Shown: positions 5,687 through 51,704, counted from the stretch's first letter. The stretch is 64,000 bases of DNA from a virus (IMGVR_UViG_3300028920_000902:12298-76297); one strand, 5' to 3'. The notes: a model not told the origin generated them from the sequence alone. Numbers and translations are program-made.

Positions 5687-7096
5687 GTGGCAAGCACATA
5701 TAATCCCCGAGACTATGTGCAGGATTATGGTTGGATTGCACAAGCTGGGAGCCAGATTGCGGCCGGTGTTGGGGGTGCCATCAAAAACATGCCCCAATTC
5801 CGCGAACACAAGGTAAAGACGGGGGAGCTTTACAGCGGTGTTCAGAAACACGTTTACAAGATGCCCGACAAGGCTGTGCATGACATTGGCACAACAAAGG
5901 CCGAGTTGGCGAAGCTTGTTCCCAAGCCGGAAAAAAACGAAGATCCAAGAAGCTATACCAAGCGCATCTCCGAATGGTATAAGCCAATTACATCAAGGCT
6001 GGAGGCTATTGGAATATCGAAGCAGGATCTCATTTCGATGATTCCGATGGGTGCCGATATTGGAACGCTCGGTAAGGAGGCGGCACAGGAGTCCCGCACC
6101 GCACAGCTTGGGCAAGCAGCACAGGGTGCGCTGGGGGCACAGTTTAAGGGACAGGAGCCAAGCCAGCAACTGTCTGCTGATGTTGGGTTGCAGCGGGAGA
6201 CTGCCCCCGGCGGGGAACCGTCTCGTTCTCAGCAATTGGGGCTTTCTGCGCCACCCACAATGCAGCCACAAATGGCAACCGCTGGCGAGGCACGAACACG
6301 CCCAGAGGCACAGCAACGCATTGCCACGACACTTGGGCAGCAGGGGGCGACACCACAAGAGATTCGTCAGCAACAGCTTGCCCTAGGCGGGGCGCTTCCA
6401 GAACAGGCGCCGTCTCCAGACGATGCTCTTATGGCTGACGTTAAGACTAAGGGTGGCATGACTTCTGCACTTGGCGCAAACACATACATTTTTGGGAAAA
6501 CCGAAGAGCTTGGTAGGTCAGAAGCCAAGGCCAAGGGTGTGAAGAAGGTGCTGGATCAAGTAAGCAAAGACCCAATGATTCTGTCAGATCCCAAGAAGCG
6601 GCAAAAGCTCATTGCCGAAGCAAAGCCCCTTGGTTTGTGGGATAATGATGGTGGCCTTGCCAGCAAGGAAACTATGCTTGAAATTTTGACTTCTGAAGAG
6701 GAGAATGTTGAGCGCCTGAAAGGAGATGTAAAGGCTGCGGAGGAGCAGAAAAACCAGGCGGTACACGGAAAAACAAAACAGCCCACACCCAAGACGGCAA
6801 CACCAAAGTCTGCTCCGGCAGCGGAAGCTACGCTTAGCACCATTGTGAACCGCGAACTTGGTAATATATTTCCCAACGATGTTGAGTTCAGCAAGGATGA
6901 TTTTGGTCGTATACAGCGCGTAGTAAAGCCCAATACGATGGCCGCACAGATTGCCGGAGACGTGGAGTTGCTCAATGCATTTAGGTATATCGTGGCGAAA
7001 GAAAATGCACGGGCGGCACGAATACCACAGCCTACGCCGGAGGCCATCGAACGGGTTAAGGCGATGATGGGTGGGGGTAAGGGAGAAGGGTTTTAG
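5687..7096 (+). CDS. hypothetical virion/internal protein (469 aa, Q-rich)
   Basis: GTG start after GGGGAAGGGGG; low-complexity Q/A-rich middle; in structural module. Confidence 0.5.
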   Translation: MASTYNPRDYVQDYGWIAQAGSQIAAGVGGAIKNMPQFREHKVKTGELYSGVQKHVYKMPDKAVHDIGTTKAELAKLVPKPEKNEDPRSYTKRISEWYKPITSRLEAIGISKQDLISMIPMGADIGTLGKEAAQESRTAQLGQAAQGALGAQFKGQEPSQQLSADVGLQRETAPGGEPSRSQQLGLSAPPTMQPQMATAGEARTRPEAQQRIATTLGQQGATPQEIRQQQLALGGALPEQAPSPDDALMADVKTKGGMTSALGANTYIFGKTEELGRSEAKAKGVKKVLDQVSKDPMILSDPKKRQKLIAEAKPLGLWDNDGGLASKETMLEILTSEEENVERLKGDVKAAEEQKNQAVHGKTKQPTPKTATPKSAPAAEATLSTIVNRELGNIFPNDVEFSKDDFGRIQRVVKPNTMAAQIAGDVELLNAFRYIVAKENARAARIPQPTPEAIERVKAMMGGGKGEGF

Positions 7097-10000
7097 TGGC
7101 CCGACAGGATAATTTTCTTTCAGCAGCCGCAGGGCTGTCTGCATATTCGGGGTGGTCTCCTGACGAGATTCGCACCAATGTCACCGATGTGCTTTCTTCG
7201 GGGGATACGCAACGAATTGGCGGTCTGACCCAAGCTCTGTCTGCGCTTAAGCCATATGGTGGCTGGGGGTCGGAAGAGATAGAGAGCAATCTTCGGACGC
7301 TGTTTCCTCAAACAGAAATCCCGCAGCCCACGTTTCGTGACACCACGCCACAGATAGAACCAGCCATTGCATCCAGCACGGCAGTGGACATACAGCCTAC
7401 AATTCCGCAGCCAACCGAAGAGCAAGTTGCAGAAAGCATTATGATTCCTGCTGCCCATGCCGGTGCGCGTGGGGCGGCGGAAGCCGTGGCGGCAGAACCG
7501 CCGCCAACTGAAGAGATGGGGCCGGAAGACATACCTCTCCCCGAGCTTGAAAAGCCAATGCAGGGGCCCGGTGGAGAGGTGCCGGGAACGCCCCAAACAT
7601 ATGACATGTATCTTGCCAGTCTTCCAAAAGAAGACCGCGAGAAGATAGAAAACGACGCACGGTATGAGGCCTACTGGCACGAGTTTGGAAAGATAGGGTC
7701 TGTGTCGGCAGGGCTTGCTGCATCAATTCCGTTTTTGAATCAGATAAGCGATGAGGAGAAAGCAGAATTTCTGTCAATGAACCCAGAGTTGTTTATGGCT
7801 GGGCAACTTGGTGGAACGGTTCTTCAGTCCATAGGGCTGGCAGGGTTGGTTGGAAAGGGTTTGCAGGCAATTCCGGCCATTGCAAAGTCCCCCCTGCTTG
7901 TGCAAGCCATTACGAGGGCAACCGTTGCGGGCGGGCTGTCCGGGGCTCGCGGTGTTGATGAGGCAATCCGTGGCAAGGGCACTTTGGCAGAAGCTGTTGG
8001 CGATGCGGTGCGTGGTGCTGGCGCTGGACTTGTTTCGATTGTTCCTGAGGTTTTTGCTCCCGCGAACGCCATACAGCTAATTGCGCAGCCCCTTGCCGAT
8101 CTTGTGTACGATGTTGGGGTTGGTGCCGTGTCTGGCGAGGATGTTGGAAGCGACGATTGGTGGAAGAACGAGCTTTTGAACCTTGCCATATCTGAAGGGT
8201 TTGCCATTCGCGATGTGGCTTCAGGGGCCAAGTTCAAAGCCACTCAGGGAGCACAGAGAGCAGAGGTACAGAAATGGCTAAAGGGCAAGGGTGGTGATGG
8301 GTTTGAAATTCTCGACAAACTAGACTTGCCAAGACCAACTCCGGGAGATGAACAGCGCCCGACAGAAACAAAAATTGGTGAACCTACAAAGAGCGTTGCA
8401 GAAACAAAGCCAGAAGAAGAGGAGCCTACGTTTGATGTTGGGACTGCTGGGGCTGACGCGACAAACCCGACAAAGGTACAGGTGCCTGCCGACCTTCAAG
8501 AAAGGGTCGTATTTGGGAAGGTTGAAGTTTCTCCCGCACAGAAAGACAAACTTACAGGTCTCCCCAATAACTCAGTAACCAAGACACAGGTAGATGCTGT
8601 TGCTGATGATGATTGGACAATCAGCATAGATGGGGATAAGTTCAAGGCTGTGAACGATACCCAAGGCCACAAGGCCGGGGATAACGTAATCACACAGATA
8701 GGTGCATTGTTTCACAAGCACTTTGGCCAGTTTGATGATGTTTTCTATGGTCGAGAGGGTGGTGAGGAATTTTTTGGGAACCTCGGCAAGGAGCTTACCC
8801 CAGAAAAATTAGCCGCTGCGCAGGCTTTTTTGGAGGAGGCACCAGACGCAATACGCATTGGAAATGACCCGTTTACACTATCTATGGGCATCGGGAAGGG
8901 TAACTATACCACAGAGGGTGGTGATAAGGCCCTTGTGAGCGATAGGGCATCCTTTATGGCCAAGGATAGTGGAAGAAATCAATTAGTTGTTGACAAAGAT
9001 GGTGTTGCAGAATACATTAAGGGGAAGGAGGTTGGCCGCAAGCAATATGTGGTTGACTTCAGCCGTAAACAAGCGAAGGAGGCCATAGATGAACTTGCCA
9101 AGGCGGGTGAAATTGACGCCGCAACAGCTAAAAGACTACGGGGAGAGGTCGATAGAGGCCAAGAAGGCCCGAAGACTGGCGGACAAAGAGTATCAGAGAC
9201 AGCGCCAGGGGAGCCAGTAAAGCCACCGAAGACACCCACCGCTGCAAAGAAGCCCCCCGCTGGTGATGGCAACCAGAAAGAGCGTAGCTTCCCCAAGACG
9301 GCCGAGAAGAAGGGTCGTGTTGGCGGTACTGACAAGCTGTATACCCCACAATCCAATGCGGAATCGATTAAACGGGCCGATGCTCTTATCGAAGAGCGCG
9401 GCCTTGTCGGTGCTGAAGAATGGGTCAAGTCTGACGAATCTAAAGGTGCAGACAAGACTGTTGTTGCCCTAAGGCTGATTGATCATTATCAAACTAGTGC
9501 GGGCAAGGTAGAGGGCGCAAAATCTGAAGCCAATATGCAGAAGGCAATGGATATTGCTTCTGAGACTGCGCGGGCATTGACTAGTGCTGGTCAGGAGATT
9601 CAGGCGGTTCGTGTTCTCAGCAAGATTGCCCCAGAAACATTTCTTACCTCCGCGCAGAAACAGATTGACCGGGTAAACCGTCAGCGGCCCAAGGCACGCC
9701 AGCTTATTCTCAAGACCGAAGACGCACGCAAGATTACTCGTCTTGCCAAAGAGGCCCAGACGTGGGATACGCTGGACAAGGAAACACAGAACACAGTAAA
9801 GGCTATTCAGAAGGTGCTGGATACAGGCGAGGTTACTGTTGCTGACATTAACTCGCTGAAAACCCTTCAGGCAAGAATCCGTGATGCGGTTGGTGTTGAG
9901 CCACGATCTCCCAAGCCAAGGGCCACCCCAAAGAAGCCAAGTCTAAATTCCATGCTTCAGTCGCGGCTTAGCGACATGGCTGCGGAACGCATGGCTAAGT

Positions 10001-12369
10001 ACAAGAAGGCCGAGCAGGAGATTCGGCTTCGTGCAGGTCTCCCGGCAGAAGAAATGGCAGACATGTCTATTATTGGTGCTGCCAAGCTTGCGGAGACGGG
10101 CCTGAGGTTTGTTGAGTGGTCGAAGTCGATGGTGTCTGATTTGGGTGAGGACATAAAGCCACACCTCAAGAAGATATACAGACGTGCTCAGTCGGCCCTG
10201 AAAACCGAGCGTGCCCGCACTCGAAAACTGTGGGAACAGGCTACGGCGATTGACAGGATATTGAAGAGGCTTGAGGCCAACGAGATGGTGCCCGAAGACA
10301 TGCTGGTTGATTTTCAGACCCGTCTTGCTGAGGCAGAGCAACTTACGGGCGAGGCGCGAACAGAGGCTGTGCTGGAAACCCAGCAGGCTATTGAAATGCT
10401 GAAGCCGGTTGGGTTGTTGAGGAAAGTGTCTACTATTCAAACCCTTGCCCAGCTTCTCAATGTTAAGACATTGGGCAGAAACATTATTGGTAATGCCCTG
10501 ATGCAGGGTGCCGAGCGTGTTTCGTCTGTTGTTGGAACGCCGATAGACATTGTGGTTTCAAAAGCAACGGGCAAGCGGTCTGTGACGCTACGGCGTGGTG
10601 GGGTAAAGGCATTGGAGGAAATGTACAAGGGTCTTATGTTTGCAACCCGCAGGGCATGGAAGGGGCTTCCTCAAGGCGATATTGAAACAAAGTATTCGCT
10701 TAAAGCCCCGGCATTCAGGACTGATGCTGAGGGTAAGTTCAAGTATGCCGAGAGGGCTGTGGCATATATGGAGCGGGCACTTGGGGTGGTTCTTGGTGCT
10801 ACTGACCGAGCGGTGGTGGAGTCTGCCAAAAACAGAACACTTGGTGAATTGGCGGAACTTGCAGCAATAAACAATCGTATTCCCAAGGCAGAGCGCACAG
10901 AGTATGTACAAAACTGGATAAAGAATGCATCAGATGAGGCAATAGACTTGTCTCACGAGTACGGCAAATATGTGACCTTTCAGGACGATAATTTTCTTGC
11001 TGATGCGGCAACAAAACTCAAAAGAGACATCCTGAATGTTAAAAAAGACTTCGGGATTGGTGATTTGATTCTTAAGTATCCCAAGACCCCCTCTAACCTT
11101 GTGAACCGTGCCTTTGCCTACTCTCCCGCAGGGTTTGTGAAGTCCATGTACCATCTTGCCAAGGCCATCCCTGCGTTCGGGGGCGAGTTTGATCAGCGGG
11201 CGTTTGTTCAGTCCATGTCTCGTGCCCTTGTCGGCACGGCTGGACTAACGGGGATGGGATATGCGCTGTACAATCTGGGGGTTATTACTGGGGATGCGGA
11301 GAACTACAGCGTAAGCGCCTTTGAGCGCGAGCAGACGGGTGGTGGCCCCTTCCGCATAAACACCTCGGCGCTGATGCGGTGGGCGCAGTCCGGGTTTAAG
11401 GGAACAGATGTGCTCAAGAAAAGACAGGGCGATACAATGGTGTCATATGATTGGGCACAGCCTCTTGCCATTTCTCTTTCAATGGGCGCAAACTGGCAGC
11501 AGACTATTCAAGATGAATACATTAAGAAGGGCGACTACGGTTCTCTTCTGGGAAATATGGTGGACTTGTTTAGTGCTGGGGCGCAGTCGTTTGCTGAGTT
11601 GCCGATGTTGACCGGTCTTCAGACATTGTTTGGCAGGGGGGTGCCGGGAGACGAGGGGCGTCAGGCAATTCGCGCATTTGAGCGAGTTTTTGAACAGGCG
11701 CCATCTTCGTTTGTTCCCACATTCGTGTACCAGATACGACAGGTAATGGACAACACCGCACGAGAAAAACATGACCCAAACCCGTTCCGCAAAGCCCTTA
11801 ATGGTGCCATTAACAAGCTTCCGTTTGTTGAAAAGATGCTGCCGGAAGCATACAACACGCTGGGTCTGAAAAAGAAGGAAATCTACAAGGGTGGAACCAA
11901 TTCGTTGTTCAACGTGTTTTTTAACCCCGCGTTTGTGACTAAGTACGAAGTTGATCCAATGGTGCAGATGATACTTGAACCATATGTGGCAGAACGCAGA
12001 ACGGGGCAGTTGCCGAGAAGGGCGCCGAGAAAAATTACTTATAGTGTGGACCGCTTCAAGGGCATTGCCAAGCTAGACGAGTTGACACAAGACAAGCTTG
12101 CGGAGATTGGTGCTTCTCGGACAAAAGACAACGTGGTGATGAATCTGGATGCCAAAGACATTTCCGAACTCCAGAGATTTATGGCCGCGCTCACCACGAA
12201 ACAGTTGCAGAATGTCAACAGGGGTGCCCTTAAGAAGAAAACACCAGAACAGCAGGAGAAGATATTGGCTAAGAGCATACAACATGTATCCCAAATGGCA
12301 CGCTTGCAGTATCTCCAGAAGAAGGCGGGAATAATCAAGAGATATACATTGCCCAAGGAGGCACAATGA
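7096..12369 (+). CDS. very large virion protein (1757 aa; tape-measure/internal-virion-protein-like) with embedded GGDEF diguanylate cyclase domain
   Basis: Single 5.3 kb ORF with long helical K/E-rich segments and a Gly-rich C-terminal region. Full GGDEF-like stretch DGDKFKAVNDTQGHKAGDNV...YGREGGEEF...SMGIG...DRASFMAKDSGRNQLV. Confidence 0.8.
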   Translation: MARQDNFLSAAAGLSAYSGWSPDEIRTNVTDVLSSGDTQRIGGLTQALSALKPYGGWGSEEIESNLRTLFPQTEIPQPTFRDTTPQIEPAIASSTAVDIQPTIPQPTEEQVAESIMIPAAHAGARGAAEAVAAEPPPTEEMGPEDIPLPELEKPMQGPGGEVPGTPQTYDMYLASLPKEDREKIENDARYEAYWHEFGKIGSVSAGLAASIPFLNQISDEEKAEFLSMNPELFMAGQLGGTVLQSIGLAGLVGKGLQAIPAIAKSPLLVQAITRATVAGGLSGARGVDEAIRGKGTLAEAVGDAVRGAGAGLVSIVPEVFAPANAIQLIAQPLADLVYDVGVGAVSGEDVGSDDWWKNELLNLAISEGFAIRDVASGAKFKATQGAQRAEVQKWLKGKGGDGFEILDKLDLPRPTPGDEQRPTETKIGEPTKSVAETKPEEEEPTFDVGTAGADATNPTKVQVPADLQERVVFGKVEVSPAQKDKLTGLPNNSVTKTQVDAVADDDWTISIDGDKFKAVNDTQGHKAGDNVITQIGALFHKHFGQFDDVFYGREGGEEFFGNLGKELTPEKLAAAQAFLEEAPDAIRIGNDPFTLSMGIGKGNYTTEGGDKALVSDRASFMAKDSGRNQLVVDKDGVAEYIKGKEVGRKQYVVDFSRKQAKEAIDELAKAGEIDAATAKRLRGEVDRGQEGPKTGGQRVSETAPGEPVKPPKTPTAAKKPPAGDGNQKERSFPKTAEKKGRVGGTDKLYTPQSNAESIKRADALIEERGLVGAEEWVKSDESKGADKTVVALRLIDHYQTSAGKVEGAKSEANMQKAMDIASETARALTSAGQEIQAVRVLSKIAPETFLTSAQKQIDRVNRQRPKARQLILKTEDARKITRLAKEAQTWDTLDKETQNTVKAIQKVLDTGEVTVADINSLKTLQARIRDAVGVEPRSPKPRATPKKPSLNSMLQSRLSDMAAERMAKYKKAEQEIRLRAGLPAEEMADMSIIGAAKLAETGLRFVEWSKSMVSDLGEDIKPHLKKIYRRAQSALKTERARTRKLWEQATAIDRILKRLEANEMVPEDMLVDFQTRLAEAEQLTGEARTEAVLETQQAIEMLKPVGLLRKVSTIQTLAQLLNVKTLGRNIIGNALMQGAERVSSVVGTPIDIVVSKATGKRSVTLRRGGVKALEEMYKGLMFATRRAWKGLPQGDIETKYSLKAPAFRTDAEGKFKYAERAVAYMERALGVVLGATDRAVVESAKNRTLGELAELAAINNRIPKAERTEYVQNWIKNASDEAIDLSHEYGKYVTFQDDNFLADAATKLKRDILNVKKDFGIGDLILKYPKTPSNLVNRAFAYSPAGFVKSMYHLAKAIPAFGGEFDQRAFVQSMSRALVGTAGLTGMGYALYNLGVITGDAENYSVSAFEREQTGGGPFRINTSALMRWAQSGFKGTDVLKKRQGDTMVSYDWAQPLAISLSMGANWQQTIQDEYIKKGDYGSLLGNMVDLFSAGAQSFAELPMLTGLQTLFGRGVPGDEGRQAIRAFERVFEQAPSSFVPTFVYQIRQVMDNTAREKHDPNPFRKALNGAINKLPFVEKMLPEAYNTLGLKKKEIYKGGTNSLFNVFFNPAFVTKYEVDPMVQMILEPYVAERRTGQLPRRAPRKITYSVDRFKGIAKLDELTQDKLAEIGASRTKDNVVMNLDAKDISELQRFMAALTTKQLQNVNRGALKKKTPEQQEKILAKSIQHVSQMARLQYLQKKAGIIKRYTLPKEAQ
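8605..9000 (+). other. GGDEF (GGEEF variant) nucleotide-cyclase domain inside the 1757 aa virion protein
   Basis: Motifs in canonical order: D-x-D-x-FK-x-NDxxGHxxGD, RxGGEEF at ~nt 8752-8772, and the C-terminal A-x-x-AKxxGRN element. Confidence 0.75.
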
Positions 12370-12608
12370 ATCTCCCGAAGAACGGCACGCTTGCTTGGAT
12401 AAAACTGCTTGTCCCGTTTTTTCTGTTGGCCATATCTTTTGCGGCGTGGTGCGGGAGGCTTGAGGCGCGGCTGACCAACGAGATGGAGTTGCGCCACAAT
12501 ACCGATCAGGGCATAGAGTATGTCAGGCGACAGAACGTGCAAATACTGCAAGAGATTGCCGGAGTGAAAGCGCATTTGGAGCACCTGAAATACCATGACT
12601 GTAAATAG
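12366..12608 (+). CDS. small membrane protein (80 aa, one TM helix)
   Basis: ATGA overlap with the upstream stop; hydrophobic stretch LAWIKLLVPFFLLAISFAAW. Confidence 0.5.
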   Translation: MNLPKNGTLAWIKLLVPFFLLAISFAAWCGRLEARLTNEMELRHNTDQGIEYVRRQNVQILQEIAGVKAHLEHLKYHDCK

Positions 12609-14223
12609 AATACCGCTGAGGAATTGGTCTGAGATTGAGTTTGAGCTTGCCAAGATTCGGGGCGAGCTTGATCGTCTTGGCGTGGCCTCGGAGCAGTCTT
12701 CCCGTGGCTGGTTCCAACAGTTGCACGTCAGAGACAGGGCACAGTTCCTTGGCGTTGCGGCAGGTGGATATCTCAGGCTCGATGCCAACAACTACCTTGA
12801 GCAAGTTCCCGCCGGAATAGGAGAAGCCAACACGGCGTCCAATGTTGGCGTGGGGGGCGTTGGGCTTTACAATGCCAAGGTCGGTGTTGACCTCCAGTTC
12901 AGAAACATCAACGCTGCTTCTGCCAGACTCTCGGTTGCGCTTGATGCGCCCAACAATGAGGTGGATTTGGATGTCGTCGAGGCCCAGATAAATCACGACA
13001 ACCTTGGCACTAGAACACATGACGGTGACACCTTGCAATTGGACGGAGTGACCAGCAACGGTGGAGCATTCAACTTTACCACTTCGGGCACGCTTACCTT
13101 TTCTAATACGGTGGCGCTGTCTACGTGTATTAATGCTGCTGGGGATACCGACAAGTTCCTTGTGTTGGATGGTGCCGACAACGTGGACTTCCGCACCGGC
13201 GCGGAGGTGCTGAGCGACATAGGTGGTGCTGCGGCTGTCCACACTCACGACGGCGATACGTTGCAGTTGGACGGGGTAAACAGCGACGGTGGGGCGTTCT
13301 CATTCAACACGACAGGTGCGGTGACGTTCAACCAAGACGTGAACACCCAGAATCTCGGAGTGACGGGCAACATCACGGTTACCGGAACGGTTGATGGTGT
13401 GGACGTTGCAGATCACCATGCCCGCCACGAAAACGGCGGTGCGGACGAGATAGATGTTGGCGGGCTGTCGGGAGAGTTGGCTGACGCGCAGCCGGTGGCT
13501 GTGAGCAAGAATAGCGGGGCCATCGTTGGAACGCGAAGCGAATTGAACTTCATTGAGGGCGCAAACATCACGCTGACTATCGCCGACGATGCTGGCAATG
13601 ATGAGGTGGACATTACCATAGCGGCGGCTGGGGGCGGAGCGCACGATTTGCTGAGTGCCACACACTCCGATACTGCTGCCGATGCAGTCACCCGTGGGTC
13701 GCTTATCTATGGTAACGCAACGCCCAAGTGGGATGAGTTGGTGGTTGGCGCGGCCAACTCCGTACTTGTTACCGATGGCACAGATGTGTCGTGGGACAAC
13801 ACGCCAACTATCGACGGCCTGACGATGGCTGGCGACATTGCGATGGGCGGCAACTCCATCACCGGAGTGAATCAGGTGGACGGGGTGGACGTGAGCGATC
13901 ATCACGCACGTCACGAGAACGGTGGGGCTGATGAGATAAGCGTGGCCGGATTGTCCGGTGTCCTTGCTGATGCACAGACGCCCGCCGCCCACGTCCACGA
14001 CGGTGACACGTTGGAACACGACGCTGTGAACAGCAACGGTGGTGACTTCGATTTCACGACTACTGGAGACATACGACACATTGTTGGTGTGGGAAATGCG
14101 TTTGTGTTGACCGACGTGGTTACGGACGATACGGACAAGCGACCGGCAATCAGGGCAGAGCAGTACGATTCCACGGGAGAACCGGAGGGGTTTACTGTCA
14201 TATATGTTGAGGGGAAGGCGTGA
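12595..14223 (+). CDS. tail fiber protein with internal sequence repeats
   Basis: Repeated modules HTHDGDTLQLDGVxSxGGAF (3 copies) and VDVxDHHARHENGGADEIxVxGLSG (2 copies), also visible as DNA repeats near nt 13018, 13246, 13996 and 13400, 13888. Confidence 0.7.
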   Translation: MTVNRIPLRNWSEIEFELAKIRGELDRLGVASEQSSRGWFQQLHVRDRAQFLGVAAGGYLRLDANNYLEQVPAGIGEANTASNVGVGGVGLYNAKVGVDLQFRNINAASARLSVALDAPNNEVDLDVVEAQINHDNLGTRTHDGDTLQLDGVTSNGGAFNFTTSGTLTFSNTVALSTCINAAGDTDKFLVLDGADNVDFRTGAEVLSDIGGAAAVHTHDGDTLQLDGVNSDGGAFSFNTTGAVTFNQDVNTQNLGVTGNITVTGTVDGVDVADHHARHENGGADEIDVGGLSGELADAQPVAVSKNSGAIVGTRSELNFIEGANITLTIADDAGNDEVDITIAAAGGGAHDLLSATHSDTAADAVTRGSLIYGNATPKWDELVVGAANSVLVTDGTDVSWDNTPTIDGLTMAGDIAMGGNSITGVNQVDGVDVSDHHARHENGGADEISVAGLSGVLADAQTPAAHVHDGDTLEHDAVNSNGGDFDFTTTGDIRHIVGVGNAFVLTDVVTDDTDKRPAIRAEQYDSTGEPEGFTVIYVEGKA

Positions 14224-16274
14224 GCAAAGTATCCATAATTATCCCCGGTCGATATGAGCGGTATTTCCAGCCCACGGTGGACTCTGTGTTGGAGTCTGCT
14301 GTTGGTGATGTGGAAGTCATCGCCATTGTGGACGAGCAGGAATGGGATGTACCGCTGCAATCTGATGATCCACGGGTGAAAATCATTCGCTTGGAGAAGG
14401 CCATTGGACAGCGGGCGGCGTACAACCTCGGCGTGCGGGAGTCAACGGGCGAATACGTGATGAAGATAGACGCCCACGCGCTACTCTCCAAGGGGTTCGA
14501 TGAGGAGCTGAAGAAGTGCTGTGGGGAGAAGGACGTGGTACTCCCCGAGATGCGGCGGCTGGATGTACACGAGTGGAAGCCGAAGCGCGGTGGGGAAACG
14601 GTACATATGTACTTTGGGCTGGATCTGTACTGCCACTATTGGCGCAAAGCGAACACCGAGGACTACCCAGAGGTAATGACAGGGCAGGGGTCATGCTGGT
14701 TCTGTCGGCGGGAGTGGAACGACCACATTGGGCTGCTCGATGAGGCGGTGGGGTCGTGGGGTAACGTCGGCATAGAGGTTTCTTTGCGGACATGGCTGTG
14801 TGGCGGCAGGCAAATCTGCTGCACCAAAGCGTGGCAGGCGCACTATTTCCGCAAGGACGATGGGGGGTTCCCGTATCATCTGACGGGCAGGGACGTTCAT
14901 AAGGCCCACAAGTACACATGGAATAACTACTACTTCAAGGACGATGCTTTCACGAATCAGACGCGGCCTTTCAGGTGGCTGATACAGAAGTTTGAGCCGC
15001 CGGGGTGGGAGGCATATCTGGTGGACTGCTTTGAGTCTCCGAGGGTGATAGTGTACTACACGGATTCGCAGCTTGTGGAACACCTGGCGGCAGCCGTGCG
15101 GAAACGCTTGAAGAAGGTGTGTGGGCCGATACCGATTGTGAGCGTGTCTCAGGAGCCGCTGGGGTTTGGCAAGAACGTGTGTGTGGGTGAACAGCCGCGC
15201 ATATACAAGAGCGTCTACGAGGCCATGCTGGCAGGCGTGAAGGCAACCCCGCCGGGAAGCATCGTGTATCTGGCTGAACACGATGTGTTCTACCACCCGT
15301 CACACTTCGCGTTTCTGCCGCCGGAGCGGGGGACGCTGTATTTCAATGAGAACCGCTACTACTACACACGGGGACACGGGAAATTTGAGAAGGCGCGTGG
15401 GAAGGTGGCGTTGTCTCAATGTGTGGCATGGCGCGAGGACTTGATACAGCACGCCGAGGAGCGGCTGGCGGTGGCGCCAGAGGACATTACCGAAAGCTTT
15501 TCCGCATGGCAGGAGCGGACTGCGCTGAAGACGGTTACGTTCTCATCGAACCGCCCGAACGTGGACGTCCTGCACGGGGCCAACCTGACCCTCAAGGGGC
15601 GGAAGAAACTGCGGTACATGCAGGGTGAGGGCGGCACGGTTCGCGACCTTCCGGGGTGGGGCAGGCCGCCACACTTCTGTTCTGTTGTGGGGTACTCGAC
15701 GGATGATTTGCACATTGTGCTGCACGAGAAATTTGAGCGGCTGCTGCCACAGGTGTCTCCCATACGGTGCCCGAAACTGAAGCGCGACTGGCTGCCGAAG
15801 ATGTTTGCAATGGCTGGCAAGCGGGGTGCGGAGGTGGGGGTGCGGGATGGTGCGTACTCGGAACTGATATGCCAAGCTGTTCGTGGGGAGCATATCTGCG
15901 TGGACATCTGGGACGAGTATTACCACTTCGACAAAGAATACGGCAGGAAGAACCTTGAGGCGTGCCGGGAAAGGCTGAAGCCGTATGGTGTGCGGTACAT
16001 AGAGAAGCCAAGCGTTGAGGCGGCGGCAGAGATAGAGGACGAGTCTTTGGACTACGTGTACGTCGATGCTGACCATCGGTTTGACTGGGTGATGGAAGAC
16101 TTGATAGCGTGGGGCCGGAAGGTGCGCCCCGGCGGTGTGATTGCGGGGCATGACTACTATCGGTTCCGCAACGCGGGCGTGGTGGATGCGGTGGACTTGT
16201 ACACTCGGATGCACGATGTGCGCGAGTGGTTTGTGACCGACGAGAAGGAATCTAGCTTTTTCTGGGTGAAATAA
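14220..16274 (+). CDS. bifunctional glycosyltransferase family 2 / class I SAM methyltransferase (Methyltransf_24-like) fusion
   Basis: N-terminal GT-A signature SIIIPGRYERYF...IAIVDEQ...YVMKIDAHA. C-terminal DYVYVDADHRFDWVMEDLIAWGRKVRPGGVIAGHDY, typical of TylF/Methyltransf_24-like methyltransferases. Confidence 0.75.
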   Translation: MSKVSIIIPGRYERYFQPTVDSVLESAVGDVEVIAIVDEQEWDVPLQSDDPRVKIIRLEKAIGQRAAYNLGVRESTGEYVMKIDAHALLSKGFDEELKKCCGEKDVVLPEMRRLDVHEWKPKRGGETVHMYFGLDLYCHYWRKANTEDYPEVMTGQGSCWFCRREWNDHIGLLDEAVGSWGNVGIEVSLRTWLCGGRQICCTKAWQAHYFRKDDGGFPYHLTGRDVHKAHKYTWNNYYFKDDAFTNQTRPFRWLIQKFEPPGWEAYLVDCFESPRVIVYYTDSQLVEHLAAAVRKRLKKVCGPIPIVSVSQEPLGFGKNVCVGEQPRIYKSVYEAMLAGVKATPPGSIVYLAEHDVFYHPSHFAFLPPERGTLYFNENRYYYTRGHGKFEKARGKVALSQCVAWREDLIQHAEERLAVAPEDITESFSAWQERTALKTVTFSSNRPNVDVLHGANLTLKGRKKLRYMQGEGGTVRDLPGWGRPPHFCSVVGYSTDDLHIVLHEKFERLLPQVSPIRCPKLKRDWLPKMFAMAGKRGAEVGVRDGAYSELICQAVRGEHICVDIWDEYYHFDKEYGRKNLEACRERLKPYGVRYIEKPSVEAAAEIEDESLDYVYVDADHRFDWVMEDLIAWGRKVRPGGVIAGHDYYRFRNAGVVDAVDLYTRMHDVREWFVTDEKESSFFWVK

Positions 16275-23160: not shown

Positions 23161-23391
23161 CTACCACCCCTCCCAGCTATTCTCGGCCCCCGCACCGGGC
23201 TTATCCTGAGACTCCACGGGGTCACCGACAGCAAAACTCCAATACGGGCCACCCTTCCCGGTTTTCTTCCAGCCGGAGAGCCAGTATTCGGTGCCGCCGA
23301 CGTTGATTCTGCCCTTACCGTCGGGCTGGTTCTCAGTCTTCTTGTCGGCATTGCGGAACATGATGCCTGAGTTATCCTTCTGCTTGTTCAC
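23161..23391 (-). CDS. DUF736-like protein
   Basis: NQPDGKGRINVGGTEYWLSGWKKTGKGGPYWSFAVGDP resembles the DUF736 core (xAWKKTSKEGRDYLSVKLDDP). Confidence 0.5.
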   Translation of the reverse strand: MNKQKDNSGIMFRNADKKTENQPDGKGRINVGGTEYWLSGWKKTGKGGPYWSFAVGDPVESQDKPGAGAENSWEGW

Positions 23392-23924
23392 TCGTTACCT
23401 CCCACGAGAATGTGTTTTGCTTGGTCTATCAGGGTGTCCGGCGGGAAATACCACCACTCACCATTGTCATCCTTCGTCTTTGGCACACCGACACGCCGCT
23501 GTTTCACGCCGCGCACGTACCCAAAACCGTCAATGTCTCCGAGCGCATACAGGTAGCGCCCAATGCCGTGGTGTACAGCAGCTCGCCGCAGCGCCTCAGA
23601 ACAGCCCCCCTTGAACGCCTCAATCGTGGTGTACTGCGCCCCGTCGGTCTTCCAGATCCATGCGGATTCTGATTCTTCCTTGTTAGTGTATATTCGTATT
23701 CCCAACGAGCACAAAATACCATTTGGGCAGGCTTCCATCTTGGTCTGCCAGCTAAACGCTCCCACAATACGGTCAAGGCGCTCCATGACATCCCGTGCAT
23801 CTATGTACGCCAGCAGCATACAGGTGGGCCGATTGTCGCTCCAGTATGGCCCGCCGCCGATTCTCCAGCGCACATTGTCCACCTCAAACGGTGCCGCAAG
23901 AGCCGATGCAATTGATTCTGTCAC
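23388..23924 (-). CDS. Rad52/Rad22-family single-strand annealing protein
   Basis: ALRRAAVHHGIGRYLY motif plus N-terminal beta-rich segment; AAGGGG RBS. Confidence 0.7.
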   Translation of the reverse strand: MTESIASALAAPFEVDNVRWRIGGGPYWSDNRPTCMLLAYIDARDVMERLDRIVGAFSWQTKMEACPNGILCSLGIRIYTNKEESESAWIWKTDGAQYTTIEAFKGGCSEALRRAAVHHGIGRYLYALGDIDGFGYVRGVKQRRVGVPKTKDDNGEWWYFPPDTLIDQAKHILVGGNE

Positions 23925-24092: not shown

Positions 24093-25865
24093 CTAATCGT
24101 CTGGGTTGTAGTTTCTGCCAAGCGACGTGTCTTCGTCTGTCTCAAAATAAAGCCCCGTGTTTACATCGTAGTTGAACTTGACCATTCCAACCTGTCCATA
24201 GTTCTTGTATTTGACCTTTTTGATGTGAACCTCGACGGTATTGTCATCAAAATTTCTGTACACCACAATCCCGTTATCTGCCTTGTTGTAGAAATTTGCT
24301 GACCCGCTGATGTCATAAAGCCCCGGAATTGGATACTTCCCGCTATCTTTGTGGCGATGCATCTTCGCTGGGTGAGCTACAAGTATCACACATACGCCGT
24401 GTTTTCTGGCGAATTTCCTCAGTTTGCGCAAGCAAACCCCGGTATACTCGCTGTCGTTCATGTCTCGCGGCTTCTGCATTTCTATCTCGTTCCACGGGTC
24501 TATTATCAGGCAATCAACTTCGTGCTGTACAGACATGCAGGAGGACAGGATGGTGTCAAGGCACAAATCTTCTTCCGTTGCATCAACAAAGTCGAAATGT
24601 GCGTCTATGAACTCTATTGCCCTGTCTACTTCGCTTCTCTGGGCTTCCCACATGTTTTTGGCACAGTATTTCTCGGCCAGTTTGTTGAAGTGTATCTCAA
24701 CCGGGTAGTTTTCTGGCGAAAACACAACAAAGCGCCACCCAAAGCGTTTGGCCAACAAAATTGATAAAAAGTCCACAAATTCGCTCTTGCCATGCGTTGG
24801 CACACCGGTCACGATGGTTAGATACCCCTTTTCGAGTCTCAGGCATTCATCAAATCGCGGGAGCATAAGGCGCTTTCCAGACTCCCGTGTGCCGTCATAG
24901 AATTTATATATGCTTTCTCTGAAGTCGGATGCCTTGACTGTGGTGGTCGATGGGAACATGTCATAGTCAACATTTTTGAGCTCTGGCTGATCGTCACCGT
25001 ACCCATCGCGCCTTAGCTGCTTGGCTGCTGCCACAAAATCGCCGTTGTGGTTGAGAATTGCGTATACAGCCGAGGCCTTGTATATCGTGTTGGCGGTGAA
25101 TTGTGTGGATGTGGTGAACACGTAGAGTCTGTCGGGTACGTGGTTCCACGTTGCGCTGATTCCACCGCTCTTGTCGGGGCGGCACAGGGCCACCTTGTCG
25201 CCGTTCTGGTGGGCAACAGTCCAACCATGACTGAGCAAAAGGTCAACGGGGTTGTTCTTCTGGTCATAATCATCAAGCGGGGAGAGGCCATTGCGGCTAA
25301 TTGATACTGTTTCTGGTGCCTGAAATGTTTTTAGATCTTCTGTTTTGTCGAAATATGCAGCGAACGCCATGAGATTATTGGCGTCTTCCAGACTGATTGT
25401 TGGTATTTCTGTCAGTTTGCCGCGCAGTATTTTGTATCCCGGCGAGGGGTTGCAAAGGAAGTATCCGCCCTCTCCCCGTGTTTCTATGAGTACCGTTGGT
25501 TTGTTCTTTGTCCCCTTTTGGGCCAGTTTTCTGTTTTCAATGCAGTTTTCGGGGCAGCGATAGAGTACATGGAACCCACCGCTGGGCGTTTTTTGAACCA
25601 CAAGCCTGTCGGTCAGGTGCGGAGTGTATTGCTTGACCAGGCTGCCCCATTCCTTGAACGCACTGCCCCCATCATCGAAGTCAACGCACTGTAAACCACC
25701 CGATACCTGCCCGCAAATGATGGCTATGGGGGGTTTCCACTTGGCAAATTCTTCCGGTGTGGGTATGCGGGTCTGGTATTCAGCCCACGGCACAAGCGGG
25801 CGCTTGTCGGACTTAACCGGAATAACGGAGAGTCCCGCACTCGCCAAGTCGGCAAAAATACTCAC
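24093..25865 (-). CDS. bifunctional primase-polymerase (PrimPol) / SF4-like helicase
   Basis: N-terminal PrimPol VDFDDGG. C-terminal Walker A GVPTHGKSEF and Walker B CLIIDPWNE. Confidence 0.8.
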   Translation of the reverse strand: MSIFADLASAGLSVIPVKSDKRPLVPWAEYQTRIPTPEEFAKWKPPIAIICGQVSGGLQCVDFDDGGSAFKEWGSLVKQYTPHLTDRLVVQKTPSGGFHVLYRCPENCIENRKLAQKGTKNKPTVLIETRGEGGYFLCNPSPGYKILRGKLTEIPTISLEDANNLMAFAAYFDKTEDLKTFQAPETVSISRNGLSPLDDYDQKNNPVDLLLSHGWTVAHQNGDKVALCRPDKSGGISATWNHVPDRLYVFTTSTQFTANTIYKASAVYAILNHNGDFVAAAKQLRRDGYGDDQPELKNVDYDMFPSTTTVKASDFRESIYKFYDGTRESGKRLMLPRFDECLRLEKGYLTIVTGVPTHGKSEFVDFLSILLAKRFGWRFVVFSPENYPVEIHFNKLAEKYCAKNMWEAQRSEVDRAIEFIDAHFDFVDATEEDLCLDTILSSCMSVQHEVDCLIIDPWNEIEMQKPRDMNDSEYTGVCLRKLRKFARKHGVCVILVAHPAKMHRHKDSGKYPIPGLYDISGSANFYNKADNGIVVYRNFDDNTVEVHIKKVKYKNYGQVGMVKFNYDVNTGLYFETDEDTSLGRNYNPDD

Positions 25866-30790: not shown

Positions 30791-30979
30791 TTGCGTAGCA
30801 ACGCCAAAGGATGTATACTTATAGACATGGACACACAGGAGCTAAACAGGTTGGCAGAATACGCCCTTCAGCGGGTTGTGAGGTGTCCCGAGTGTGGCAA
30901 GCGGCCCAAATGGATATCCGTGGGCACGCACAAGCCAATATACTACTGTGAGGAGCATGGAGCGTGGAGATATGACTAG
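30791..30979 (+). CDS. zinc-ribbon protein (62 aa)
   Basis: CPECGKRPKW...YYCEEHG. Confidence 0.45.
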   Translation: MRSNAKGCILIDMDTQELNRLAEYALQRVVRCPECGKRPKWISVGTHKPIYYCEEHGAWRYD

Positions 30980-31529
30980 CACGGACTCACACGATATTGA
31001 CCCAGCCACAGCGGCAGCGCCCCGCAACGCAGTTGCGGCAGAGACTACACCAATAAAGAAACACCCCGGTGGTAGACCTACACTATACACAGACACACTA
31101 GCCAAGAGCCTAATGGAACAGGTAGCAAGCTCGCCTGACTCCATTGACACGATATGCGCCAATCACCATATCACACCAAGTACGTTCTGGTTGTGGGTGA
31201 AGGACAATCAAAAGTTTTCGGAGATGTTCAACCATGCGCGATCCGCAAGGTCACACACGCTGGTCCATTCAGACCATGCCAAGCTCCAGGAGCTAGAGAT
31301 CAAGGCAGAAATGGCCTCAAATGAGGAATTAAGGCGCATTGACCTGCAATCACGCATACACAGGATACGTATAGGGCGCAATCAGTGGATGGCTGAGCGC
31401 ATGAATCCACGCCAGTACGCCCCACAGCAGCATGTAGACGTCACCCAGAGGGCGCTCAACGTACACCTGCACGCTGACACACCAGAGGATGTGCAAGACA
31501 TGGCGAGCAGGCTAGAGGAGCTTAGGTAG
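30972..31529 (+). CDS. terminase small subunit-like HTH protein (Terminase_2-like)
   Basis: GGRPTLYTDTLAKSLMEQVASSPDSIDTICANHHITPSTFWLWVKDNQKFSEMFNHARS matches the TerS/HTH pattern; GGAG RBS. Confidence 0.55.
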   Translation: MTSTDSHDIDPATAAAPRNAVAAETTPIKKHPGGRPTLYTDTLAKSLMEQVASSPDSIDTICANHHITPSTFWLWVKDNQKFSEMFNHARSARSHTLVHSDHAKLQELEIKAEMASNEELRRIDLQSRIHRIRIGRNQWMAERMNPRQYAPQQHVDVTQRALNVHLHADTPEDVQDMASRLEELR

Positions 31530-43545: not shown

Positions 43546-44250
43546 ATGATAACAGTTGATTGGATAGTGCCGGTTTGGCGCCCAGACAAATATCGACAGG
43601 CCAATCTTGTTCAACAAAGAACATGGATTGCGTCACAAAAAAGGCTGATAGTTAATTTCAAGCCCATGTATGATGATTCGGACGAATTTAACAAGCAGTG
43701 GCTGGTGAATCGAGGGTTTAGAGAGTCTACGGCGGGGTGGGTGTTTGTTGCTGATATGGATGTGATTGGGGAGGGAACAGAATATGTGTGGGATGTAACA
43801 CAATGGCTGAAGCAGAACAATCTCCAATGGGGCTTTGGTTGGAACCGGCTGGTCTACAGGGGAAAGGATGGCGGGAAGGACAGGGACGATTGGCCCAATC
43901 CCGGTGTTCAGGAGGGCGGGGTGGTCGTGTTTGGGCGCAGTCTGTGGAAGGAGATGGGTGGGGCCAACGAGTGGATACGGGAACTGTCTGGCCCGGACAA
44001 TGATTTGGCTCTGCGGGCGCGGTATGTGTCGGGCACATATTCATCGTATCCGCGCACTCTGACTCACCAATGGCACCCACGCTCAGAGATGAAGCGTGCC
44101 AAGTGGCTCAAAAACAATCAGTCAATCTTGAAATATACCAACAAGTTTCCGTGGCGGGTGGTGAAGCTGCTCAAGATGCAGCCGTGGGGCGGCGCCGAAC
44201 CATATTGCGACAAGAGCTTCTATGAAACTAGGACAAACGCCCACCTTTGA
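43546..44250 (+). CDS. putative glycosyltransferase (GT2-like)
   Basis: DNDLALRARYVSG resembles a GT2 C-terminal motif. Confidence 0.4.
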   Translation: MITVDWIVPVWRPDKYRQANLVQQRTWIASQKRLIVNFKPMYDDSDEFNKQWLVNRGFRESTAGWVFVADMDVIGEGTEYVWDVTQWLKQNNLQWGFGWNRLVYRGKDGGKDRDDWPNPGVQEGGVVVFGRSLWKEMGGANEWIRELSGPDNDLALRARYVSGTYSSYPRTLTHQWHPRSEMKRAKWLKNNQSILKYTNKFPWRVVKLLKMQPWGGAEPYCDKSFYETRTNAHL

Positions 44251-44935
44251 GCATTATCTCCTCACACGGTGGAATTTGGGAATCTATTCAAGGGCACAGA
44301 AGACCGTTGGGGGCGGCCGGATTGACCCCGAACAATGGATGGTGTCACGATTCCGGCTCTGGGAGAAATACTGTGTTCCGTCTGTTTTTAATCAGACCTG
44401 CCAGAACTTTACATGGCTTGTGGTTTTTGATCCGGCAACACCACGGCATTACGTTGAACGAGCAACGGCCATTTTGCACCCCAAACACGAGATTCTGTTT
44501 GCCAACAATTTCAGGCAGGGGATTAAAGTGCGGATTGGAAAGCCGACGGTTGACCGGCTCATCACCTCGCGGTTGGATAACGATGATGCGCTCCATGTTG
44601 ATTACATCAAGAAAATCCAAGAGCGGTTTCTTAGGCGCACTAAAACGGGTCTTTATGTGTTTCCGACAGGGTGGATTTGGAATCCCAGGAAGAGGAAGCT
44701 CTACCATTGTCGGTATCTCAGGAACCCGTTTCTGACATTGGTGGAGAAGCCGCAAACGAAGGTGCATACGGTTTTGGCGCACAGACATACGAAAATTGGG
44801 GAGATGTTTAAGGTACATCGGCTGGAGGGTGGGCATCGGTGGGTGCAGATAATCCACGGGGAGAACTTGGCGAACTACTGCCACGGTGACAGGGTGGATG
44901 AAAAGTTGCTGGTGGAGGGGGAGTATTGGGGATGA
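44222..44935 (+). CDS. putative glycosyltransferase (LTRWN-type N-terminus, rhamnosyltransferase-like)
   Basis: HYLLTRWNLGIY N-terminal motif; DNDD motif. Confidence 0.4.
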   Translation: MKLGQTPTFEHYLLTRWNLGIYSRAQKTVGGGRIDPEQWMVSRFRLWEKYCVPSVFNQTCQNFTWLVVFDPATPRHYVERATAILHPKHEILFANNFRQGIKVRIGKPTVDRLITSRLDNDDALHVDYIKKIQERFLRRTKTGLYVFPTGWIWNPRKRKLYHCRYLRNPFLTLVEKPQTKVHTVLAHRHTKIGEMFKVHRLEGGHRWVQIIHGENLANYCHGDRVDEKLLVEGEYWG

Positions 44936-45627
44936 TACTTGCCAAGAAGGCGAATGCTGAGTTTGGGTGGTTTCTGATGCGCTGGCAGGGGCATTTGCGG
45001 TATTTGTCACAGAAGCACAAGGTAAAAGTGGAGTGCGAGGATTGGCAGCGGTATTTGGTGAGTGATTTTGAGTATACGGGTGAGCCAGAGGATGAGGTGA
45101 CAGAGGTACACTATACCAAGCGGCTGCAAAGAAAAAAGCACCTGAAGCAGGAGTTCATACGCTATGGGGTGCTTGGTTCTCATCCGGGGTACGATGTTGT
45201 GATACACGCCCGGAATTTGAACAAGGGCGTTCATCGAAATTGGCCGGACGAGAAGTGGCAGGAGCTGGTGAAGGAGCTGAATGGATACCAGATTGCTTTT
45301 GTGGGCACATACGATGGGGCGCGGTGTTGGGGCGGGGACAAGCGCGGGGTGCCGCTGGAAGAGCTGTGTAACATCATGTGTAATTCTGACTTGTTTATTG
45401 CAGAGTCTAGCGGCCCGGCACACTTGGCAAGCCTGTGTGGGTTGAACCACTTGGTGATTACGGATCGGCGAAGGTGGCGGGTGGGGTGGAAAAAGTCGCG
45501 CAATTGGAACCGTTACGTCCGTGATTGGAACCCCTTGGGCACTCCGGCATATGTGCTGGATCAGGATGACTACAATCCGCCCGTGGCGAAGGTGCTGCGG
45601 GCAATCGAGAAGAACGGGTTACTGTGA
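44926..45627 (+). CDS. glycosyltransferase family 9-like (heptosyltransferase-like)
   Basis: RNWPDEKWQELVKEL and AESSGPAHLASLCG match GT9 C-terminal motifs. Confidence 0.55.
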   Translation: MGMILAKKANAEFGWFLMRWQGHLRYLSQKHKVKVECEDWQRYLVSDFEYTGEPEDEVTEVHYTKRLQRKKHLKQEFIRYGVLGSHPGYDVVIHARNLNKGVHRNWPDEKWQELVKELNGYQIAFVGTYDGARCWGGDKRGVPLEELCNIMCNSDLFIAESSGPAHLASLCGLNHLVITDRRRWRVGWKKSRNWNRYVRDWNPLGTPAYVLDQDDYNPPVAKVLRAIEKNGLL

Positions 45628-45733
45628 CTATAATCCGCCGGTAGAGAGGGTGCTTCATGCTATTGACAAAAACGGGCTTCTTTAGAAGACAGGGCGGTGA
45701 TGAATTTGCGCGTCTCAACTTTCCGGAGGTGGC

Positions 45734-46492
45734 GTGATCAAAATAGCCAATATGTCACCGGAAGATATTGCACACATTGTGCCCCCAAACACAATTTTAC
45801 TTGGGTATATGGGTTCAATATCACACGGTACACAGATTGTTGGCCCTGACTCGATAGACGACAAGGACATCATGGGGTGTGCGGTTGGGCCGATTGAGTG
45901 CTATTATGGGCTCAAGAAGTTTGAGCAGCGGGAGTGTAAGCGTGGTGTGTGGGACTCGGTTATCTACGAGTTGCGAAAGTATGTGTGTTTGTTGCTCAAG
46001 CAGAACCCAAACGTTCTGGGGTTGCTCTGGCTCCAGCGCAAGGACTACATACACATTTCCCCCGCAGGCCAGCGCCTTATTGATAACCGTACCCTTTTTG
46101 TGTCGAAAAAGGCATATCACAGCTTTGTGGGATACGCCCACGGGCAGTTACATCGTATGACACATGGTGCATATCAGGGATATATGGGGCAGAAGCGCAA
46201 GCAGTTGGTTGATAGGCATGGGTATGACACGAAGAACGCGGCACACCTTGTGCGTCTTCTCAGAATGGGCATTGAGTATTTAGTGGAGGGTGAGTTGCAT
46301 GTGTTTCGTGAAGATGCCCCAGAGCTTAAGGCCATTAAGCGTGGCGAGTGGACTCTTGAGCGCGTACAGCGTGAAGCTGACAGGCTATTTGAGTTGGCGC
46401 GAGAGGCGCATGTGAGATCATCATTGCCATCAGGGCCAGATTATGGTGGCGCGGAGAAGCTTCTTGTGTCAATTCTTAGGGACACCTTGTGA
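45734..46492 (+). CDS. nucleotidyltransferase-fold (Pol beta-like) protein
   Basis: GSISHGTQIVGPDSIDDKD resembles the hG[GS]...DxD minimal nucleotidyltransferase motif. Confidence 0.45.
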   Translation: MIKIANMSPEDIAHIVPPNTILLGYMGSISHGTQIVGPDSIDDKDIMGCAVGPIECYYGLKKFEQRECKRGVWDSVIYELRKYVCLLLKQNPNVLGLLWLQRKDYIHISPAGQRLIDNRTLFVSKKAYHSFVGYAHGQLHRMTHGAYQGYMGQKRKQLVDRHGYDTKNAAHLVRLLRMGIEYLVEGELHVFREDAPELKAIKRGEWTLERVQREADRLFELAREAHVRSSLPSGPDYGGAEKLLVSILRDTL

Positions 46493-47418
46493 ACATTTAC
46501 TTCCACGCCTCGGGGCCCAAGTCTGGTTTAGACAACAATGGCGGCTCCCGCACCATCCTCAAGTCTGCCGAGGTGCTGCGGGAACTAGGTCACCATGTAG
46601 ACGTTGTGGCGTCCTATGATGCTTTCACATGGTTCTCTCACCCCAAGCCAATCAAGCAGGTGCCAGAGGGTGATGGTGTGGTCGTAGCTGTCAGTGCACG
46701 GGATGTGAAGAATGCCGTCAAATATGCTCGGGGAAAGCCGGTTTATTGGTGGATACGTGGCAAGGAACTGTGGCAGATGCCCGAGGAGAAGTTGATTCAG
46801 CGGGCGAAGTGGGTGAATTGCATAGTGAACGCCGAACACTTGCGGGATTGGCTCAAATCGCATGGTGTCAAGTCAAAACTGTGCTATGCCGGGATTGACG
46901 ATTTGTGGGAGCCAGAGGGTGATGACCTGTGGGACATGGCAGGGTTCAAGGCATCGGAAAATATACAAGATCCGATAGTTGTTGGGTGTCTGAAGAACAT
47001 GCATCACCCCACGAAGCGGTGGGATATGTGCCTCGATTTGTTGGGGCGGTTGGACGAGAAGCGGTTCAAGGTGATTCACACGGGTGCCCCGGACAAGACC
47101 GAAGAGCAGATGCGGGAAATATACCAAAAATGTGATATATGGTTTGCACCATCAGAACTGGAGGGCTTTCACAATGTACCGCTGGAAGCGGGTCTATGTG
47201 GGTGTTTGGTTGTGTGTCGGCGCAGCCCTCGTGGGGGTTGTCGGGACTACGCTACTGAAGAGACTGCACACCTCTTTGACACAATTGAGGAGGCGGTCGA
47301 AGCTATTCTCCGCCCTGACTTCCGTAAGATACCACGGTTTTTCCAATATGCGTGGCCGAAGATAGGGAGCAGACACTCCAACATGGAGAAGTTTGTGGGG
47401 ATATTGTGCCGAAAGTAA
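46489..47418 (+). CDS. GT4-type (GT-B) glycosyltransferase
   Basis: ELEGFHNVPLEAGLCGCLVV E-x7-E motif. Confidence 0.65.
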   Translation: MNIYFHASGPKSGLDNNGGSRTILKSAEVLRELGHHVDVVASYDAFTWFSHPKPIKQVPEGDGVVVAVSARDVKNAVKYARGKPVYWWIRGKELWQMPEEKLIQRAKWVNCIVNAEHLRDWLKSHGVKSKLCYAGIDDLWEPEGDDLWDMAGFKASENIQDPIVVGCLKNMHHPTKRWDMCLDLLGRLDEKRFKVIHTGAPDKTEEQMREIYQKCDIWFAPSELEGFHNVPLEAGLCGCLVVCRRSPRGGCRDYATEETAHLFDTIEEAVEAILRPDFRKIPRFFQYAWPKIGSRHSNMEKFVGILCRK

Positions 47419-51700: not shown

Positions 51701-51704
51701 ATGT

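Follow-up and report, generated by a model that had tools for sequence, protein, structure and literature searches.

A GGDEF domain in an exchangeable cassette of a large late-operon protein from an uncultivated phage, a candidate virion-delivered diguanylate cyclase

We analysed a 64,000-nt stretch of DNA from an uncultivated virus (IMGVR_UViG_3300028920_000902:12298-76297), hereafter the window, in which all positions are counted from the first letter. The gene under study (7096..12369, plus strand) starts with GTG and encodes a protein of 1757 aa, termed P0001. It overlaps by 1 nt the stop of the upstream gene (5687..7096, plus strand, 469 aa), with which it is translationally coupled, and its 3' end is overlapped by a downstream gene encoding 80 aa (12366..12608, plus strand). 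The open reading frame had been predicted with these same boundaries and this length, and gene calling on two independent ENA assemblies gave the identical gene. We rejected the possibility that the gene is an artefact of misassembly or gene fusion, since it was present in both assemblies and its architecture was repeated in an independent JGI sample.

A P22-type portal gene was located on the same strand just upstream of the window start and was followed by 13 genes and then by the 1757-aa gene, which is thus part of the late/structural operon. The phage is very divergent, since neither the 1757-aa protein (megablast and tblastn) nor the putative capsid gene (tblastn) had a match among 50,697 GenBank phages. 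The neighbouring genes and the upstream capsid-region genes had almost no match in Pfam or PHROGs. In the phage encoding P0004, a close homologue of P0001, a 468-aa gene occupied the position matching that of the 469-aa gene, the two being alike in position and length. Phage markers in the window included an Sf6-type small terminase (30894-31529), DNA methylases and endonuclease VII, together with a Prim-Pol/DnaB-type primase-helicase fusion (24093-25865, minus strand) and a Rad52/Erf-like annealing protein (23388-23924, minus strand) that both lie in a minus-strand early block. No tRNA genes were present. The window mapped to a 76,311-bp ENA contig (ERZ27252253:k141_3896401; loci L003, L012 and L013), on which the offsets of two loci differed by exactly 76,311 minus 141. 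This indicates a circular assembly with a k-mer overlap, and hence a complete genome of ~76.2 kb.

Roughly a quarter of the 76-kb genome was occupied by ~20 consecutive glycan-synthesis genes on the same strand (44222-63000, plus strand). This cluster encoded a NeuB nonulosonic-acid synthase (50176-51048, plus strand), two CMP-sugar synthetases (51038-51700 and 60947-61618, plus strand), a probable B12/radical-SAM enzyme (presumably the ORF at 61585-62946, plus strand), at least six glycosyltransferases, two FkbM methyltransferases and an RlaP nucleotidyltransferase. Two genes downstream of the 1757-aa gene, within the structural operon, a gene (14220-16274, plus strand) encodes a 684-aa protein in which a family-2 glycosyltransferase is fused to a Methyltransf_24 domain; it may serve virion glycosylation or host-surface modification.

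The 1757-aa protein could be divided into several regions. Following the first residues, a conserved, moderately hydrophobic Gly/Ala-rich N-terminal region extended over aa ~198-395 (7687..8280, plus strand) and was 60-90% identical in the three close homologues P0002-P0004. One of its segments, aa 311-330, exceeded a Kyte-Doolittle value of 1.4, and the region is possibly membrane-interacting. Similar Gly-rich stretches, as judged by eye, were present in the homologues P0006, P0013 and P0014. A flexible linker rich in P, E, T and K (linker 1, aa 396-466, 8281..8493, plus strand) led to an exchangeable cassette (aa 467-700, 8494..9195, plus strand) that consisted of a GGDEF domain and a conserved tail of ~60 aa. 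A second linker, rich in P and K (aa 701-728, 9196..9279, plus strand), was followed by a C-terminal module of 1029 aa, which we call the carrier (aa 729-1757, 9280..12366, plus strand); it begins at the motif ERSFPK and is predicted to be mostly helical. GGDEF was the only recognisable enzymatic domain in P0001, and no Pfam hit at E <= 0.1 was obtained for MuF, portal-fusion, LPD, ART-PolyVal or PBECR markers. Sequence searches of PDB with the N-terminal region and the carrier gave no match to characterised ejection proteins, and the protein had no PHROG match. At the extreme N-terminus (aa 1-78, 7096-7330), the short motif Y-[SG]-G-W-[SG]-x-[DE]-E-I-x-[TS]-N occurred in two copies; this part was common to P0001 and P0004 (68% identity over aa 1-50) and was shared by neither P0002 nor P0003, a pattern that reveals a further mosaic boundary.

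The GGDEF domain proper spanned aa 482-629 (8539..8982, plus strand), as delimited by Pfam, TIGR00254 and PDB matches and by residue alignments. Pfam GGDEF (PF00990) matched this segment with an E value of 3.1e-13 and 50.3 bits, compared to a gathering score of 23.8, over profile positions 2-161 of 161. NCBIfam TIGR00254 scored 49.9 bits against a cut-off of 37.4, and many diguanylate-cyclase equivalogs fell on the same stretch. A phmmer search of PDB matched 44 diguanylate-cyclase structures, the top one being 3ign_A (E 4e-13). The domain was ~28-34% identical to its best bacterial matches. The GGDEF match is far above chance, and the original prediction of a complete cyclase domain was confirmed, with the profile covered over its full length and all active-site residues kept. 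The range that had been proposed for it (~nt 8605-9000) was about right, the domain beginning roughly 65 nt earlier, and the catalytic GGEEF motif was found as claimed at aa 555-559 (8758..8772, plus strand).

To assign individual residues, the domain was aligned to ten bacterial GGDEF domains and to the GGDEF segment of PleD (29% identity, E 8e-13). We take D512, D514, K517, N520 and D529 of P0001 to be the counterparts of PleD D327, D329, K332, N335 and D344, respectively, and R553, K623 and R627 to be those of R366, K442 and R446, with G555-G-E-E-F559 as the GGEEF motif. In PleD, D327 is a metal-binding aspartate, N335 and D344 specify guanine, and K442 and R446 bind phosphate; in Hypr-type GGDEF enzymes the guanine-specifying aspartate is changed. 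These residue roles are established in the PleD literature (Chan et al. 2004, as cited in PMC5512222) and in that on Hypr-GGDEF enzymes. All functionally assigned positions were canonical in P0001 when compared to the ten bacterial domains and PleD, and none of the Mg/GTP-binding residues was lost. Because N520 and D529 correspond to the guanine-specifying pair, the product would be expected to be c-di-GMP.

The RxxD allosteric inhibitory site is a regulatory element found in many GGDEF members, not all. It was absent from P0001, which has G544-Q-F-D547 where PleD has R359-x-x-D362, the arginine being changed to glycine. The arginine is also replaced by glycine in P0002, and the RxxD site is absent too in P0018, the only other relative with a clear GGDEF domain. 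With GQFD in place of RxxD, product feedback has probably been lost. A codon comparison over aa 467-640 with the P0002 gene (locus L010, 72% identical overall) yielded a dS of 1.14, a dN of 0.082 and a dN/dS of 0.07, a ratio that fits an enzyme and a binding module equally and does not discriminate between them. On this ratio, the GGDEF domain is being maintained by purifying selection, as opposed to being a remnant in decay.

We examined mosaicism in an alignment of the four close homologues P0001-P0004. Between P0001 and P0002, the GGDEF cassette was 86-94% identical, which was above the ~76% of the backbone. The cassette could not be aligned to P0003 (gene at L011 250-5799) or P0004 (genes at L002 3711-9686 and L005 7151-13126), which bear a different module of ~350 aa at this place. 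Over aa 401-450, linker 1 of P0001 did not differ from that of P0003 (100% identity), whereas its identity to the P0002 linker was 26%; over aa 396-466 the dS against P0003 was 0.16. Judging from these sequences, a recombination boundary is located at linker 1. The pattern in which linkers and cassettes are shared means that all four linker-cassette combinations exist, and thus that related phages exchange the cassette by recombination.

The alternative cassette of P0003 and P0004 had no Pfam or PDB match, and a word-indexed homologue search for it was empty. Its AlphaFold2 model had a pLDDT of 39.8 and was unusable for a fold search, and when its profile was compared directly with that of GGDEF, the match did not reach significance. 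In a small local database it was homologous to a segment of another protein, P0033 (E 9.5e-10), and the six best PDB matches of that segment were all GGDEF proteins (E 0.035-0.74). After P0033 was added and a 35-aa insertion was removed from P0003 and P0004, hhalign against the GGDEF alignment gave 91% probability and an E value of 9e-7 over the catalytic core, a result that could be biased by this editing, as the insertion was chosen from our own reading of the motifs. The motifs D-x-x-N-L-x-x-x-N, H-x-x-A-N and R-x-G-G-D-E of the alternative cassette were collinear with the GGDEF motifs, and an asparagine stood in place of the guanine-reading aspartate. Together, these data support, short of proof, the assignment of the alternative cassette as a divergent GGDEF-like domain, linked through P0033, and suggest that the slot may alternate between two cyclase-type modules. 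This natural polymorphism is equivalent to an isogenic-like comparison, with one backbone carrying either a GGDEF or a divergent GGDEF-like module.

The carrier belongs to a large family. A search of 1.84 billion cluster representatives with the carrier profile recovered 5163 proteins at E <= 1e-3, of which 1117 reached E <= 1e-30. The carrier block was C-terminal in each of the 150 best matches listed (of 5163), in proteins ranging from 482 to 5587 aa. The carrier was absent from Pfam, and as it was also absent from PDB, PHROGs, INPHARED and PLSDB, no characterised relative anchors its role. A tblastn search with a Paenibacillus homologue against phages (INPHARED) and plasmids (PLSDB) found nothing, and an AlphaFold2 model of the C-terminal 708 aa of the carrier (pLDDT 43.8) was unusable for a fold search. 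The sequence matches of the carrier in PDB were at chance level and were rejected. They were FlgM (E 0.39) and TraC/VirB5 of pKM101 (1r8i_A; E 0.0025 over 48 residues, carrier aa ~1217-1264, A7 profile positions 168-215), the latter probably also a chance match.

Members of the family carried a variety of other domains. By Pfam, P0018 combined GGDEF (E 5e-26), PBECR5, ART-PolyVal and the carrier. Among 21 other large carrier proteins, ART-PolyVal was found in six and RadC in two, FtsK-gamma, 2H phosphoesterase, Zeta toxin and DnaJ were found once each, and there was one weak GGDEF hit. P0014 had a ParB nuclease domain, and P0006 had an SLT transglycosylase domain at its N-terminus. GGDEF was rare in the family, occurring in about three of the ~210 carrier proteins examined; it was found in none of 53 carrier loci of bacterial genomes and none of three in IMG/VR, and among the 150 best carrier representatives (of 5163) only P0018 had a clear GGDEF domain. 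The carrier was present in prophages of many phyla, including those of Paenibacillus, Clostridia, Acidobacteriota, Caulobacteraceae and Gallionella. An adaptor gene of the SU10 podophage type lay upstream of the carrier gene in two other phages, and the carrier gene of a Paenibacillus prophage was also directly before an amidase-holin lysis cassette. The SU10-type adaptor neighbours of these relatives showed no similarity to any gene of the phage encoding P0001. As an uncatalogued family of 5163 representatives that lies outside the curated protein and phage libraries, the carrier family could serve as a source in which to look for additional injected effectors.

It is plausible that P0001 is a virion or ejected protein. 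The polyvalent domains of the carrier family, and the podophage-adaptor and late-operon contexts in which its genes occur, support such a delivered protein rather than prove it. Our preferred reading, which we hold with modest confidence, a little above even, is that P0001 is a cargo-carrying protein of the polyvalent/ejected type that delivers a guanine-specific cyclase for a podophage-like phage of ~76 kb. Counting against this reading are the single recognisable enzymatic domain of P0001 and its lack of polyvalent markers, the want of a characterised relative for the carrier, the absence of an obvious dimerisation element ahead of the GGDEF domain, and the phage genome itself, in which no domain of a c-di-GMP receptor was detected. 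In the scheme that we infer, from packaging and injection to dimerisation, catalysis and the consequences for the host, the protein would be synthesised late, be packaged into the particle by means of its carrier module and be threaded into the cell along with the DNA. The GGDEF domain would then refold, pair with a second copy and condense two molecules of host GTP into c-di-GMP, a synthesis that the lost RxxD feedback site would leave free of product inhibition. An early rise in c-di-GMP could switch the host state, with motility turned off, surface or matrix changes and possibly the exclusion of other phages; alternatively, it could perturb nucleotide-based signalling ahead of any phage gene expression. 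Which host process c-di-GMP would act on is a matter of speculation. Should P0001 prove to be packaged and active, it would provide the first concrete and testable example of a phage that delivers a ready-made second-messenger synthase with its DNA, so that c-di-GMP signalling would be seized ahead of phage gene expression.

A wider, tentative proposal concerns the slot as a whole, and we regard it as doubtful. The slot could be dedicated to nucleotide-signal synthases preloaded in the virion, being filled either by a feedback-free guanine cyclase or by a previously unrecognised GGDEF-derived family, presumably with another product. The two modules would then be alternative second-messenger generators, injected at the very start of infection so as to forestall or jam the signalling of the host or its nucleotide-based immunity.

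Delivery is one way in which a late-made cyclase could act. It is also conceivable, and in our judgement unlikely, that P0001 is made late and not delivered, and acts in the producing cell, for example as a membrane-anchored enzyme, where a late rise in c-di-GMP would serve the surface, the matrix, lysis timing or the glycan programme of the phage. An intact GGDEF domain under selection is consistent with such a function, as are the glycan cluster that fills about a quarter of the genome and the glycosyltransferase-methyltransferase fusion two genes downstream. It is generally known that polysaccharide synthases are commonly activated by c-di-GMP, and a phage-relevant case of c-di-GMP activating polysaccharide synthesis has been described (PMC8669472). 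However, the gene is part of the structural operon, and the cargo of its family is of the injected type (ART-PolyVal, PBECR and SLT). Moreover, neither PilZ nor any other domain of a c-di-GMP receptor was detected in the glycan genes of the phage.

The delivered-cyclase reading further assumes that the domain makes c-di-GMP. We consider it quite improbable that the domain works here as something other than a diguanylate cyclase, be it a module that binds GTP or nucleotides or has a structural role, or an enzyme with another product such as a linear or mixed cyclic dinucleotide. GGDEF cyclases need to form dimers, and isolated GGDEF domains are inactive when they do not dimerise; no obvious dimerisation element or stalk helix was evident upstream of the domain in P0001. 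In addition, the Asp-to-Asn change in the divergent cassette of the relatives suggests that a diversity of products is important at this position. Against these points, the GTP-binding, metal-binding and catalytic residues of P0001 are all canonical, including the guanine-specifying N520 and D529.

The original prediction had also offered a tape-measure function, and a tape-measure protein of a long-tailed phage with an embedded enzymatic domain would agree with the large size, the mostly helical prediction and the Gly-rich hydrophobic segments of P0001, with the lytic domains that such proteins sometimes bear (as SLT in P0006) and with a single PHROG "tail assembly chaperone" hit somewhere in 19-64 kb, but this option is very improbable, as there was no tape-measure hit in Pfam or PHROGs, the gene directly upstream encodes 469 aa and is not a frameshifted chaperone pair, the portal is of P22 type and relatives have SU10-type podophage adaptors, and a family that ranges from ~0.5 to 5.6 kaa with cytoplasm-acting cargo (ART and RNases) is unlike a length ruler.

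Large phage proteins with GGDEF domains have been described before. Iyer, Burroughs, Anand, de Souza and Aravind argued in 2017, from domain architecture and genomic context, that polyvalent proteins are packaged and co-injected with the DNA (PMC5512222). The same study defined the ART-PolyVal and PBECR5 families for polyvalent proteins and noted rare GGDEF domains among their cargo, for example in Acetonema longum WP_004096050.1. Polyvalent proteins unite two or more domains with unrelated biochemical activities in one large chain, and their genes lie among the virion or late genes of phages or the transfer genes of conjugative elements. The arrangement seen in P0001, with GGDEF housed in a large protein that the phage presumably injects, thus belongs to a kind already described computationally in 2017 (PMC5512222). 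The placement of such a domain in this protein had been called unusual, which is borne out by its rarity among carrier proteins and is qualified by this precedent. Like the GGDEF-bearing polyvalent proteins, P0001 has its GGDEF domain within a very large phage protein that is encoded among virion genes and is predicted to be injected, and its carrier family has members with ART-PolyVal and PBECR5. In contrast to the polyvalent proteins, P0001 has a single recognisable enzymatic cargo and no MuF, portal, LPD or ART markers, it has a C-terminal module of ~1000 aa that is absent from Pfam and PHROGs, and its GGDEF cassette is exchanged for another module among near-identical phages. What our analysis adds is a carrier family that had not been catalogued, together with an I-site (RxxD) that has been lost, a domain under strong selection and a cassette that is naturally polymorphic.

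The P0001 domain agrees with the cyclases PleD, WspR and DgcZ in its GGEEF motif and in the residues that contact metal, phosphate and guanine. Unlike them, it has no sensory or receiver domain, no coiled-coil stalk and no RxxD, and it is set between disordered linkers. P0001 also resembles the T4 Alt ADP-ribosyltransferase, the N4 virion RNA polymerase and T7 gp16 in its late-operon position and, in concept, as a pre-made enzyme entering with the genome; the N-terminal transglycosylase of T7 gp16 has a parallel in the N-terminal SLT domain of P0006. However, no sequence similarity to P0001 was detected for these three proteins, and sequence searches of PDB and PHROGs found none to the podophage ejection proteins T7 gp14-16 and P22 gp7/20/16. 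P0001 would make a second messenger, whereas T4 Alt modifies protein, the N4 polymerase synthesises RNA and T7 gp16 cuts the cell wall. A precedent for host c-di-GMP being raised by a phage is provided by the YIP peptides, which activate the host cyclase YfiN (PMC8085984). These peptides act indirectly, through a host enzyme, while the phage encoding P0001 brings its own cyclase. Our literature searches turned up no experimental example of a cyclase delivered by a virion.

At the beginning of the window, the segment 85-2160 (plus strand) is the 3' part of a 768-aa gene whose product has PKD and concanavalin/LamG-like domains and is likely a surface-exposed decoration or receptor-binding protein.
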